A stretch of 64,000 bases of DNA from Yuukianura sp. NJ FZ-2021 (lineage: Eukaryota): assembly GCA_046563655.1 (NCBI GenBank), contig CM102287.1, forward strand, positions 3,100,001 to 3,164,000. Direction: 5' to 3'. Under the pieces are notes generated by a model. It was not told the DNA's origin, searched no databases, and saw nothing but the letters and a program-made list of their open reading frames with translations. Below, piece after piece: positions 45,672 to 50,532 of this stretch. Position 1 is the stretch's first letter; each line of letters begins with the position of its first letter. Made by a program: the position numbers and the translations under genes.

Positions 45672-46397
45672 TCTTAAATTTCAGTCGATTAACGCTACGC
45701 CAACTTCTGGACTAGAGAGGCTTCAAAAATCAACGATGGTACTCCAGCAGCATGTGTGAAGTTCCGCTGTTAGTGGTTTTTGTTATCCTGTGAAATTGAA
45801 ACAAATCGAAATTAATAACTCATCCACTCCAACTGGGTCAATTTTAAGTAAACACTGATAAATTAGCCTAGTACACATGACATATGAGCGCAATTTAAAC
45901 GCTTCACTTCTACAATCCGCAAGCACTGACAAACATCAACATCTGTTTGATATGCGATTGATTAATCTTAAGATTAAATTGATCAATTGATTAGAATGAG
46001 ATGACAAACATTACCTCACCTGTTCTACTCTACTGCGCAAAGGACGACGTGGAATGCCAATGTCACCGGAATTTTGACCTCGCTTGACCTTGTTAATTAG
46101 AAATTAAATAAATGACTCACACAGTAATTGACGCATTTGAAAAACTCCGACAGATTCCAGATTCCAGAAAAACTGTTTTTCTAAAAAAAAACCCGAAGTG
46201 TCATTTTCCCTCCTTATGGTAGATGACAGAGTAGGAGTTGAGACCTTAATTTAATTGTTAGGCCAATTAACCGTAGTTCAACACAATCGAATAGAATTTA
46301 TTAACAACTCAATTAACGATGTCTCAAGTAACCTTATACGCCAATTAGTTAAGTCTTAAAAGCAAGCTTGACGCCAACATTTTTTATATAACATACC

Positions 46398-47095
46398 GGT
46401 TGGAGAGTAGATCCGCAGTCTGTTTTTCTTAGTCGTTTTTTCGACATGGACATGCTCCATGATAATCGCCAAAATGACCTCTACAAAAGTTGTTCCTCTT
46501 GAAAAAATATGCAACTTCTTTTAGTACCACTTTTTCCTGTGACCTTTCGTTGAGGTCACAGGTCAAGGTCAAGTGTTGGTTCCCTTACAACCGCTAAAAT
46601 GACCTATACAAAAGTTGTTCATCTTGAAAAAATATGCAACTTTTTTTAGTACCACTTTTTCCTGTGACCTTTCGTTGAGGTCACAGGTCAAGGTCAAGTG
46701 TTGGTTCCCTTACAACCGCTAAAATGACCTATACAAAAGTTGTTCCTCTTGAAAAAATATGCAACTTTTTTTAATACCATTTTTTTCTGTGACCTTTCGT
46801 TGGGGTCACAGGTCAAGGTCAAGTGTTGGTTCCCTTACAACCGCCAAAATGACCTCTACAAAAGTTGTTCCTCTTGAAAAAATATGCAACTTTTTTTAGT
46901 ACCACTTTTTCCTGTGACCTTTCGTTGAGGTCACAGGTCAAGGTCAAGTGTTGGTTCCCTTACAACCGCTAAAATGACCTATACAAAAGTTGTTCCTCTT
47001 GAAAAAATATACAACTTTTTTTAGTACCATTTTTTTCTGTGACCTTTCGTTGGGGTCACAGGTCAAGGTCAAGTGTTGGTTCCCTTACAACCGCC
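46398..47095 (+). repeat. Left TIR: 73-bp terminal segment plus five 125-bp tandem units
   Basis: Units start AAAATGACCT at 46471, 46596, 46721, 46846 and 46971. Confidence 0.95.
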
Positions 47096-47622
47096 AAAAT
47101 TTTCCCGCCAAATTTAATTTTCCCGCCAAAATTTTCCCGCCAAATTTAATTTTCCCGCCAAAAGTTTCCCGCCAAATTTAATTTTCCCGCCAAAATTTTC
47201 CCGCCAAATTTAATTTTCCCGCCAAAAATTCCCGCCAAAATTTTCCCGCCAAAAATTCCCGCCAAAATTTTCCCGCCAAAAATTCCCGCCAAAATTTTCC
47301 CGCCAAATTTAATTTTCCCGCCAAAATTTTCCCGCCAAATTTAATTTTCCCGCCAAAAATTCCCGCCAAAATTTTCCCGCCAAAAATTCCCGCCAAAATT
47401 TTCCCGCCAAAAATTCCCGCCAAAATTTTCCCGCCAAAATTTTCCCGCCAAAATTTTCCCGCCAAATTTAATTTTCCCGCCAAAATTTTCCCGCCAAATT
47501 TAATTTTCCCGCCAAAAATTCCCGCCAAAATTTTCCCGCCAAAAATTCCCGCCAAAATTTTCCCGCCAAAATTTTCCCGCAATTCCCGCCAGAATTTAAA
47601 ATTCCCGCCAAATATTCCCGCT
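47096..47622 (+). repeat. Array of ~35 TT(T)CCCGCCAAA motifs (E2F-consensus-like), 13-18-bp spacing
   Basis: Hand count of TCCCGC(C) cores. It ends ~140 bp before the transposase ATG and has no counterpart at the right end. Confidence 0.93.
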
Positions 47623-47759
47623 AAAAACAAAAATATGTGTATGGTCGCTGACAAAAAGTCCGCATCAGGTGGCTATGGCAATATAAATATTAGTTCTAAA
47701 AGCAGGTAAAATAACCGCAAGTAACCCTTGCAAGCTAATGCCCCCATTTCTCAGGTAAA

Positions 47760-49142
47760 ATGAACGAGGACGAGGACGACGTTCTTATTGAACGCTTGGA
47801 CGATCTCTTGGTAGGTGGCAATTGCACCATATTTACCTTCAGCCAAACCATTGTAGACGAGGCCACTGCTTTTAAAGCTGCTGTTTGCTGGGGCCTTCTG
47901 CCAACTGAAATCAAATGCGATCGGCATCCGCACCGCAAATTAATGAAGATGTACACCCAGCAAAATAACAAGTTGGGGTTTGTGTGGCGGTGTCAAAGAA
48001 GACCGTGTTCCGGTAGGCGTTTATCCCCATTAGAAAACACATTCTTCGAGAAAAGCCGCCTCAGCTTTAAGGAAGTACTGTCCCTGATCGTTTGTTTCTT
48101 GCTTAAATTTACAGTGAAATTCACTGCTATGCATTGTGGGATTACGAGAAAGACAGTCGTGGAATTCTTTCACTTCTGTAGAGAAGTGTGCGAAGTAATC
48201 GATGCACACGACAGCAGACAGGTCGGAGGCCCTCGTGATGTAGTTGAAATAGACGAAACGCATCTGTTCACGAGAAAATATGGCAGGGGAAGGCAGCTCA
48301 AAAGACATGTTTGGGTGTTTGGAATGATGAGCCGATTCACCAAGAAAATAATCGTACGCCAGGTTGAGAATAGAACCCGAGCTACCTTAGACCCCATAAT
48401 TCAAGCTCATGTAGTTCCAGGATCTTGGATTATGAGCGACTATTGGCGAGCCTACCTGCGTTGCGATTATAGACTTGGAATGAGGGGCCATGCACGTGTC
48501 AACCACAAGAGGAGGTTTGTTGAAGGCACGGTAGACATTCCCCGTGTAAGTCCACGATTGGGGCGGGTTAGAATTGGCACAAATACTGTACGTGTCAAGG
48601 TGCACACCAATACCCTCGAAAGGCAATGGAGAGAAGTGAAGAAGGCAATTAGAAGTTGCAGAAGTGAAGAAAAGATTCCTTGGTATATTGGCGAGTACCT
48701 GTACCGCAAAAACTTCTTGAGCCAACACAAAGAGATGTTGGGCCCCATGCTAAGGCAATTCATGGACAGTATTATTAGAGTGTATCCTGGACCAGCTATG
48801 ATTGGCAGGGGAGTTAATGAGGCGATTTACAGATTCGCTTATACGCAATTTCCCATAAGACTTAAGGTGCATCGCGTCTATGACTGGTTAGGCGCTCAAA
48901 AAACTACGACCACACTTTTCGCATTAGCATACACTGCTCCACAACGCAAAACTTTGCGATCTGACGAAAACAGGACCCTTCGTCCAGAAAACATAGGTTT
49001 TCTGGAAGACGTTTCAGAAATCCTCGGATTTCTGCCTTCTTTTGCTTTTAACGGCGAAACAGTCGAAGATTCGTTAGATCGCAAACTTTTGCGATGTGGA
49101 GCAGCGTATGCTAATGCGAAAAGTGTGGTCGTAGCTTTTTGA
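47760..49142 (+). CDS. Merlin/ISXO2-like DDE transposase (460-aa ORF; last ~90 aa derive from a foldback)
   Basis: Zn-ribbon CDRH..WRCQRRPC, HTH-like region, VVEIDETHL, RKYGRGR..VWVFG, IMSDYWRAY, VNH, HTNTLERQW, YIGEYLYR, IIRVYP. Confidence 0.92.
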   Translation: MNEDEDDVLIERLDDLLVGGNCTIFTFSQTIVDEATAFKAAVCWGLLPTEIKCDRHPHRKLMKMYTQQNNKLGFVWRCQRRPCSGRRLSPLENTFFEKSRLSFKEVLSLIVCFLLKFTVKFTAMHCGITRKTVVEFFHFCREVCEVIDAHDSRQVGGPRDVVEIDETHLFTRKYGRGRQLKRHVWVFGMMSRFTKKIIVRQVENRTRATLDPIIQAHVVPGSWIMSDYWRAYLRCDYRLGMRGHARVNHKRRFVEGTVDIPRVSPRLGRVRIGTNTVRVKVHTNTLERQWREVKKAIRSCRSEEKIPWYIGEYLYRKNFLSQHKEMLGPMLRQFMDSIIRVYPGPAMIGRGVNEAIYRFAYTQFPIRLKVHRVYDWLGAQKTTTTLFALAYTAPQRKTLRSDENRTLRPENIGFLEDVSEILGFLPSFAFNGETVEDSLDRKLLRCGAAYANAKSVVVAF

Positions 49143-49173
49143 GCGCCTAACCAATCATACAGGCGATGCACCT
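48865..49173. mobile_element. 309-bp foldback (putative MITE flanked by TA) nested in the Merlin ORF
   Basis: Arms of ~105 bp (48863-48968 and ~49070-49175) are inverted complements with 8 mismatches by hand alignment. TA flanks at 48863-48864 and 49174-49175. Confidence 0.6.
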
Positions 49174-49701
49174 TACGATTGGGTCAGAGTTCACGAATTT
49201 CGTGTTTACAAATTACAATTTCGTATTACGTCACTAAGAGTTGGGGCGACTTGAGAATTGAGTATCAGAAGTGGCTCATCCACTTCGCCATGTTCATTGA
49301 GAAAAACCCGCGAATGATCCACAAATTTGAAATCCAACGCAGTGATTCGCGAGTTAGCATGAGTTTCAAGCAAATTTCAATCGTAGAGAATCCACCCGTT
49401 CGGGGTTTTGTATGATTGCGTAATGTGTTAATTCTCAATTCTCAGCCGTTGCTATGTCTACAGAGCGTTTTTTAGCGTTATTTTTATTGACCTGATGTCT
49501 CACCTTAAGGCAAATCGTGCAGATTGCCAGTGTCCAGAATGCCATCCATGAAAAATAGCAACTTAGAATTTAATGAATTAAAGGGTTACTAATGGTTACT
49601 TCAATGTTGGTTGGTCGAGACTTAATGAACTGATCTCCCAACCAACAAATTTTTTTTATCCATTTATTCTAACTTTTCGACTTCCTGTCATGTTGCCATA
49701 A

Positions 49702-50245
49702 TTGACCTATGACCTCAACGAAAGGTCACAGAAAAAAATGGTACTAAAAAAAGTTGTATATTTTTTCAAGAGGAACAACTTTTGTATAGGTCATTTTAGC
49801 GGTTGTAAGGGAACCAACACTTGACCTTGACCTGTGACCTCAACGAAAGGTCACAGGAAAAAGTGGTATTAAAAAAAGTTGCATATTTTTTCAAGAGGAA
49901 CAACTTTTGTATAGGTCATTTTGGCGGTTGTAAGGGAACCAACACTTGACCTTGACCTGTGACCCCAACGAAAGGTCACAGAAAAAAATGGTATTAAAAA
50001 AAGTTGCATATTTTTTCAAGATGAACAACTTTTGTATAGGTCATTTTAGCGGTTGTAAGGGAACCAACACTTGACCTTGACCTGTGACCTCAACGAAAGG
50101 TCACAGGAAAAAGTGGTACTAAAAGAAGTTGCATATTTTTTCAAGAGGAACAACTTTTGTAGAGGTCATTTTGGCGATTATCATGGAGCATGTCCATGTC
50201 GAAAAAACGACTAAGAAAAACAGACTGCGGATCTACTCTCCAACC
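49702..50245 (-). repeat. Right TIR: ~3.8 inverted 125-bp units plus 73-bp terminal segment
   Basis: Inverted units end GGTCATTTT at 49797, 49922, 50047 and 50172. Confidence 0.95.
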
Positions 50246-50532
50246 AACATACCTCACGAAAAAAACTGCGGCATGTTTACGGAGAAAGTCATATCCGGGG
50301 ACTTTCCTACCCCCCGCACTTGCCTACTTTCCCCCGAAATTCGGATAAACACTTTGGATCTGCGTTCCAGTTCAGTCAGTCGGTCACGAAACGTCGCCGT
50401 GGACATTCTACTCCTAAAAGTTAGTCCGAAAGAACAACATTCCGAGACACACAAGTTTGATACATAACAACATAACTAACGGAATTCTGCTAAGTTTAGG
50501 AAATCTTCCAGCTCCAGCTGACCTTCGACCTA

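Follow-up and report, generated by a model that had tools for sequence, protein, structure and literature searches.

A DNA transposon with the termini of a Merlin element (GG at its start, CC at its end) spans positions 46398-50245 of the window, that is, of the whole 64,000-nucleotide stretch of DNA analysed here (Table 1). Its terminal inverted repeats (TIRs) are 97% alike over 544 bp and identical in the outer 194 of 194 letters, which points to a recent insertion. The element lies between two divergent host frames and thus may affect host genes: the ATG of a family-38 mannosidase (45671) is ~730 bp to its left, and that of an uncharacterised ORF (50533) is ~290 bp to its right. Each 125-bp TIR unit (e.g. 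46467-46591) holds five AGGTCA/TGACCT half-sites, which we take to be of the nuclear-receptor type; similar words occur in host introns.

By the sequence of its GG..CC termini, its 8-bp target-site duplication, its TIRs and its DDE_Tnp_IS1595 domain, the element is a member of the Merlin superfamily (definition in PMC8101967). An autonomous copy would also need an uninterrupted transposase ORF, and in the window copy that ORF is broken near its 3' end by a 691-bp insert, which the earlier note on this DNA does not mention; the 460-residue frame seen in this copy is a read-through into the insert. In an alignment of 12 sequences, D165, D227 and E287 of the transposase are invariant. The protein is 43-50% identical to its ten near relatives, the nearest named proteins being moth Merlins (44-49%), and the transposase DNA is single-copy in the assembly.

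The insert belongs to a multi-copy family: its left end has matches at 21 or more other genomic sites, and two copies elsewhere are 99.7-99.9% identical to it. It is flanked by TTAA, its two ends differ, and it contains an internal inverted repeat of 106 bp. One copy (L008) lies within a non-autonomous relative of the window Merlin TIR.

Table 1. Features of the Merlin element and its promoter region, in window coordinates.
Feature	Position	Strand	Basis or remark
Left target-site duplication AACATACC, 8 bp	46390..46397	+	Identical to 50246-50253
Left TIR, starting with GG: outer part of 69 bp, then five 125-bp units and the opening 9-10 letters of unit six	46398..47100	+	TRF, period 125 x5.1
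E2F-type word array, 36 units (13, 14, 18 bp)	47091..~47627	+	Tandem-repeat and word counts
TTTAAA-N4-CCGCC composite, single	47595..47609	+	Spacing taken as CDE/CHR-like
TATAAATA, candidate TATA box	47682..47689	+	Sequence
Candidate 49-bp 5'UTR intron, GT..AG	47706..47754	+	Branch-like CTAAT at 47735; CAGGTAAAAT at both ends
Merlin transposase, main part, DDE_Tnp_IS1595	47760..48813	+	PF12762, E 6.6e-15
691-bp non-autonomous insert at a TTAA site inside the transposase	48814..49504 (to 49508 with flank)	.	Multi-copy family
Transposase end past the insert: cysteine-rich C-terminal tail, stop codon	49505..49551	+	Similar CxCxxC tail in relatives
Right TIR, ending in CC: 3.8 of the 125-bp units, array absent	49702..50245	-	Inverted-arm and tandem-repeat detection
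Right target-site duplication AACATACC	50246..50253	+	Identical to left copy

The array and the promoter region

An earlier note on this DNA had described about 35 tandem E2F-consensus sites in one orientation directly upstream of the transposase, on one end of the element only. Our counts bear this out: all 36 units lie on the plus strand, each with one TTCCCGC, and the right TIR, inspected at the other end of the element, carries no array. Units of 14 bp (16), 18 bp (8) and 13 bp (8) are joined by 4 variants. Besides the 36 copies of TTCCCGC, the array holds 34 of TTCCCGCC, 25 of the strict consensus TTTSSCGC, 24 of TTTCCCGCCAAA and 16 full copies of TTTTCCCGCCAAAA. This density is far beyond chance, since the rest of the window, with 27 TTSSCGC sites, never has more than 3 in any 540 bp. 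The units are organised in higher-order blocks, a pattern typical of slippage, and the changes from unit to unit sit in A/T runs; such variation is what neutral slippage gives, so the intact cores are no sign of selection. The sites are spaced at 13-18 bp, out of phase with the helical repeat, and the final site lies 145 bp from the ATG.

The eight 18-bp units read TTTAAT-N4-CCGCC, with the same spacing as the single TTTAAA-N4-CCGCC composite, which we take to be a candidate for the CDE/CHR-like spacing of a DREAM element. TTTGAA and TTCAAA words do not occur within the array. A reading of the array as Sp1/KLF boxes was dropped: the consensus of that box is CCGCCC, and the array reads CCCGCC.

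The positions given earlier for the TATA-like word TATAAATA (47682) and for the ATG (47760) are both correct. The 50-bp 5'UTR intron proposed at 47705-47754 fared less well: a GT..AG candidate is present, but its true span is 49 bp (47706-47754) and it fits the TATA box badly. Its donor lies only 24 bp past the first T of the box, upstream of the start expected at ~+28 to +34 for TATA-directed transcription, so the two are unlikely both to be right. Splicing of the candidate would remove an out-of-frame ATG at 47738 (a 6-codon uORF). A perfect 10-bp direct repeat, CAGGTAAAAT, bounds it (47703-47761), as expected if the intron arose by tandem duplication of an AGGT site. The first T of TATAAATA is replaced by A in variant contigs of two public sequencing runs (X3 and X4, described below).

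Distribution and origin of the array

Is the array a generic satellite that happens to lie beside a transposase, as the earlier note had allowed? In the 98.7-Mb assembly, all 14 matches to the 25-letter double unit, and 31 of the 32 matches to a looser paired-site pattern, fall inside the array, which is thus unique in the assembly and not a generic satellite. Viral contigs contained no match to the paired array word, and none of their 96 pattern matches was accompanied by a transposase relative.

The stretch was also found in four public DNA runs (X1-X4) from two studies, one of them possibly the source; no RNA runs were listed. In X2, from the other study, one contig of 1487 letters runs from the end of the array through the promoter and the ORF, which there lacks the insert, and so links the array to an insert-free transposase. 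It differs from the window by 4 letters and 15 gap letters, all gaps being at the array end, and retains the 18-bp unit. Its depth (238, vs 5-70 for the listed insert-family pieces) is not a copy number. An insert-free form of the transposase occurs in X1 and X3 as well, both of which skip the 691 bp. Because of these insert-free forms, the array can be assigned to a family with intact members, in which the arrangement of units varies. Fragments of a sister sequence, ~90% alike, occur in X1 and X3, as does a form of the array, absent from the assembly, in which one unit is inverted and its core altered (GGAGGG between units). In X4, from the same sample as the possible source (share 0.08), the array end and a variant promoter are covered and most of the ORF is not. 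This pattern may reflect a sister or a deleted derivative with the array, gaps in contigs being no proof of absence.

Beyond this family the array was not seen in the relatives compared. The earlier note had suggested comparing other copies of the element, and conservation of the array in relatives is not supported: we found no E2F-word cluster in the 7 metagenome Merlin loci with upstream DNA (nine loci examined), no array in 3 host Merlin paralogues, and no CCCGCC in 5 parsed non-autonomous relatives, whose TIR ends are ~88% similar. The last group derives from 77 candidates, 40 of which were scored; 13 loci were inspected and the ends could be parsed in 5. In one host paralogue (L066) the TIRs have similar 125-bp units, and the stretch from TIR to gene is free of E2F words. 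Five of the 9 metagenome loci carry arrays of different words (8 to 42 bp), and in a second host paralogue (L067, 952-1260) each TIR contains a 12-bp array with a TATA-like word behind it. As read from these sequences, the array is a family-specific feature in an array-prone superfamily. One non-autonomous TIR relative (L144 / L158, G000:C3 ~6517372-6518250) was seen ~2.1 kb upstream of an MCM_N match.

How the array arose is partly legible at its edges. Its beginning is in register with a junction between TIR units, CCGCCAAAAT, and its last letters are those of the second variant of that junction, CCGCTAAAA. The claim that the array core also forms some TIR-unit junctions is right for 3 of the 8 junctions (CCGCCAAAAT, one of them the array start); the other 5 read CCGCTAAAAT, and the TTTC flank is missing. 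A junction supplies only the right 10 of the 14 unit letters, and the TTTC that makes an E2F site is not in the TIR, which argues against the proposal that the array is a plain expansion of the junction. When 10-20-bp windows of two TIR units were set in tandem, an E2F-type word appeared in 1 of 2420, and it differed from the array word. We infer that slippage multiplied a host-type word, or a small cluster, lying beside the TIR, with the crossover at the ten letters that both share. Small host clusters of the same style do exist, one in an intron and one after a stop codon (L190, L191). Among random host 13-, 14- and 18-mers set in tandem, TTTSSCGC arises in 0.18% and TTSSCGSSAA in 0.02%.

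An array of this origin might be a neutral subterminal minisatellite, amplified from a host-type E2F word by the TIR junction via slippage and unequal exchange; E2F might bind it, with no benefit to the element. The block structure and the A/T-run changes would suit such a history, as would the 15 gap letters at the array end in X2, the unrelated-word arrays of the metagenome relatives and of L067, and the tandem repeats already published inside Merlin (PMC8101967); with natural clusters and a word common in the host, seeds were at hand. It is less easily squared with the chance of an E2F site, ~0.2% per array (though many factors could have matched), with the rarity of such words among TIR-window duplications, or with the placing of the array on one side, next to the promoter. 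Because many factors could match, the word is common in the host and Merlins often make arrays, we regard a neutral array as a serious possibility, if one well short of even odds. It would then be one more case of Merlin ends breeding minisatellites.

The two junction variants at the array edges would also be compatible with a set of binding sites for the transposase, or for another element or host factor, taken from the TIR junction for autoregulation, with the E2F match incidental. However, the CGCC/CGCT letters of the junction are not conserved in the TIR relatives or L066, the neighbouring AAAATGACC..ACAAAAGTTG is conserved in both yet missing from the array, and the array unit equals a host-wide word in unique DNA. 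We therefore give autoregulation very little weight.

The array word in the host genome

In crystal structures and binding selections of E2F proteins, the site crystallised with E2F8 is TTTTGGCGGGAAAA, and TTGGCGGGAA is favoured by E2F2/DP1 over both GGCGCC, the homodimer site, and the older site GCGCGC (PMC4686757). The word TTTTCCCGCCAAAA, present in 16 array units, is the complement of the E2F8 crystal site and of the E2F2/DP1-preferred SELEX / ChIP-exo site, A/T flanks included (PMC4686757). With 25 strict TTTSSCGC matches and 16 full copies of this E2F/DP-preferred word, the identification of the array word as an E2F/DP consensus word holds. The host has the corresponding proteins: all four candidates have intact recognition helices, and they represent three genes, two E2F and one DP. 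The two E2Fs are presumably E2F1-3-like and E2F4/5-like. No two-domain E2F7/8 was seen among the host candidates, where exon-split genes may escape detection; flies are without E2F7/8 (PMC4362205).

The word is also prominent in the host. The 12-mer TTTCCCGCCAAA occurs 441 times in the genome, compared with 6 times for a reversed control, and 24 of these copies are in the array and ~417 dispersed. It makes up 441 of the 1374 host TTT-S6-AAA sites and is the commonest E2F-type word of the host. In a hand count of the first 74 such sites listed, 58 fit TTTSSCGC, where 19% of the possible cores do, and the cores seen most often were the heterodimer SELEX word (30) and the homodimer SELEX word GGCGCC (15). 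The flanks of 90 of the 441 sites are mostly unique DNA, with 17 further E2F words where 5.3 were expected and a 2.5-fold excess of TTCAAA. These observations favour the view that the host 12-mer is a real DNA-binding site of E2F type.

Two other readings of the dispersed word were rejected. As an intronic RNA motif it should be flanked by splice sites on its own strand, and of 90 sites, 7 had both a donor and an acceptor on the strand of the motif and 3 on the opposite strand, with backgrounds of 3.3 and 4.5. As copies of one repeat the sites should resemble each other, and 30 loci yielded one paralogous pair and one 23-bp match.

In the samples taken, the genes near the dispersed word did not tie it to the cell cycle. 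A Pfam scan of 29 motif loci covered 124 of 309 ORFs; selection of the five longest in each locus with GC >= 0.40 gave 128, and four of L115 that overlap L114 were dropped. Matches were obtained in 11 of the 29 loci, and a recognisable cell-cycle gene beside the word in none; an Rb_C match (E 2e-4) was taken as spurious, being weak and inside a carboxylesterase gene. Sites of the word were found in introns and after stop codons. In small samples treated without gene models, TTCCCGCC was present upstream of 0 of 5 MCM and 1 of 7 proteasome genes, and the looser TTSSCGC (2 of 5 vs 3 of 7) did not discriminate between them. In 140 kb of random host DNA the 8-mer TTCCCGCC was not enriched (3, vs 4, 3, 1 and 4 in permutations). 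Along G000:C1, TTTCCCGCCAAA is unevenly distributed, with 30 sites at 0.4-2.9 Mb, 3 at 2.9-6.1 Mb and 34 at 6.1-9.9 Mb.

E2F-type words also recur in other mobile DNA of this genome. A gene-less long-TIR (foldback-like) family with ends TATGGAGGG (loci L174-L181, L183 and L184; e.g. L175:927-3049, L183:1080-2306) has 2-6 TTTSSCGC words per end, counted in 8 copies, and two short members contain 22-bp tandem units with a TTTSSCGC word. The word pair TTTCGCGC..TTTCGCGC was found at five places (L185-L189). In L185 it follows CAGTGTTGCCAA, which to us looks like a hAT-type end.

Words of this kind at the ends of a family that has no gene to regulate raise the question of whether the array acts on DNA rather than on transcription. 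Bound E2F, or the A/T-tract DNA itself, could keep the left end nucleosome-poor or recruit replication and repair factors, and so aid excision or gap repair. The array does abut the TIR directly, and a role of this sort has been proposed for plant E2F-bearing transposons in a review (PMC7329337) that cites a paper now marked as retracted; PMC6268010, from the plant E2F/transposon literature, is so marked. However, synapsis needs both ends whereas the array is one-sided, the parsed non-autonomous TIR relatives spread without it (0/5), and the 13-18 bp spacings are not helically phased. A role at the DNA level thus appears improbable, although somewhat less so than autoregulation.

Possible cell-cycle gating of the transposase

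Given the conserved specificity of these proteins, the host E2F/DP probably binds the array. The likeliest effect of the array would be on transcription of the transposase, because it is one-sided and next to the promoter, and our preferred reading is that it forms an E2F/DP platform that gates this transcription (probability roughly 0.45). The platform would be a slippage-expanded cluster of the host's high-affinity E2F/DP word in the promoter of one Merlin family. At a spacing of 13-18 bp, not all sites could be filled at once, yet the cluster would still be a strong platform. In resting somatic cells, pocket-protein- or DREAM-bound E2F would keep transposase transcription low, and in cycling cells release, or an activator E2F, would raise it. 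Whether the array activates or represses cannot be told from its letters. Several observations weigh against gating: the array is confined to one family among the Merlins compared (0/7, 0/3 and 0/5), the host word stands without a recognisable cell-cycle gene in 29 loci and is missing upstream of all five MCM matches, and the TATA box is not kept in the variant contigs.

Why such a platform would persist is a separate matter. For a cut-and-paste element, copy number rises only through moves made around DNA replication or in the germline. The array may have been kept because transposing around S phase, or in the proliferating germline, gains copies, an idea we consider rather less likely than not. 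We would be similarly reserved about the fuller proposal that a host motif was turned by a Merlin family into a multi-site E2F/DP enhancer, kept by selection for restricting transposase to cells in S phase or of the proliferating germline. If selected cell-cycle gating is true, the E2F-type words in the ends of the unrelated long-TIR family would be convergent. Titration of E2F, which the earlier note had offered as an alternative, is implausible, since a single locus offers 24 sites beside ~417 dispersed 12-mers; a far greater number of copies in other individuals would change this. With ~35 optimal E2F words, a public insert-free allele and array-less relatives in the same genome, the idea of gating is directly testable.

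Some features of the element are those of published Merlins. The superfamily is related to IS1016/IS1595 and has GG termini, target-site duplications of 8 or 9 bp and TIRs of 24-462 bp (Feschotte, 2004, via PMC8101967). GG termini, an 8-bp duplication, DDE_Tnp_IS1595 and internal tandem repeats are common to these elements and to ours (PMC8101967), whereas the TIRs of the window element are longer (>=544 bp), the excess coming from the 125-bp units. For the published repeats, the consulted parts of that paper propose no factor-binding role, and its supplements hold 2 isolated matches to the 11-mer. Within the mainly open literature searched, with Repbase outside its scope, we found no description of an array of E2F sites at the promoter of a DNA transposase gene in an animal, or of a cell-cycle-gated promoter in an animal cut-and-paste transposon.

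The closest parallels lie outside the Merlins. Ac/Ds gains copies by moving during replication, and Ac senses replication through hemimethylated transposase sites (PMC5371812); it shows why S-phase timing pays a cut-and-paste element but, unlike the arrangement proposed here, involves no cell-cycle promoter. In Caenorhabditis, the MITE-derived germline promoters CERP2/CELE2 contain motif pairs bound by HIM-17 (bioRxiv 10.1101/2022.01.21.477252). They too are transposon-borne motifs, and they drive germline transcription in an animal; unlike the Merlin array, they have been co-opted by host genes, and E2F has 0 occurrences in the parts of that preprint consulted. In worms, DREAM binds to repeats in addition to promoters (PMC8552245).

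In Brassicaceae, MITEs and other transposons amplified E2F sites (Henaff et al., 2014, via PMC5950925 and PMC7329337), and E2F/RBR is bound in vivo at transposon sites with seemingly little regulatory effect on genes (PMC7329337). As in the Merlin element, E2F words were multiplied inside DNA transposons and one word variant is dominant. In contrast, the Brassicaceae cases concern plants and mostly non-autonomous elements that hold >70% of genomic E2F sites, while the Merlin is an animal, coding element with a promoter array and 24 of 441 genomic 12-mers.

Finally, Helitron1_CE has 14 HSEs upstream of its transposase and Helitron7_CB of C. briggsae has 85, and both HSF-1 binding and HSF-1-dependent induction of the transposase have been demonstrated for Helitrons (Garrigues et al., 2019; PMC6927752). 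Like these, the window element is an animal DNA transposon with a dense cluster of sites for one factor before its own transposase gene; unlike the Helitrons, with their many site-bearing copies and demonstrated binding, it is a cut-and-paste element with E2F words, one assembly copy and a case made from sequence. E2F sites in plant transposons were already known, and what appears new here, within the literature searched, is an animal cut-and-paste transposon with an E2F-word array at its promoter.
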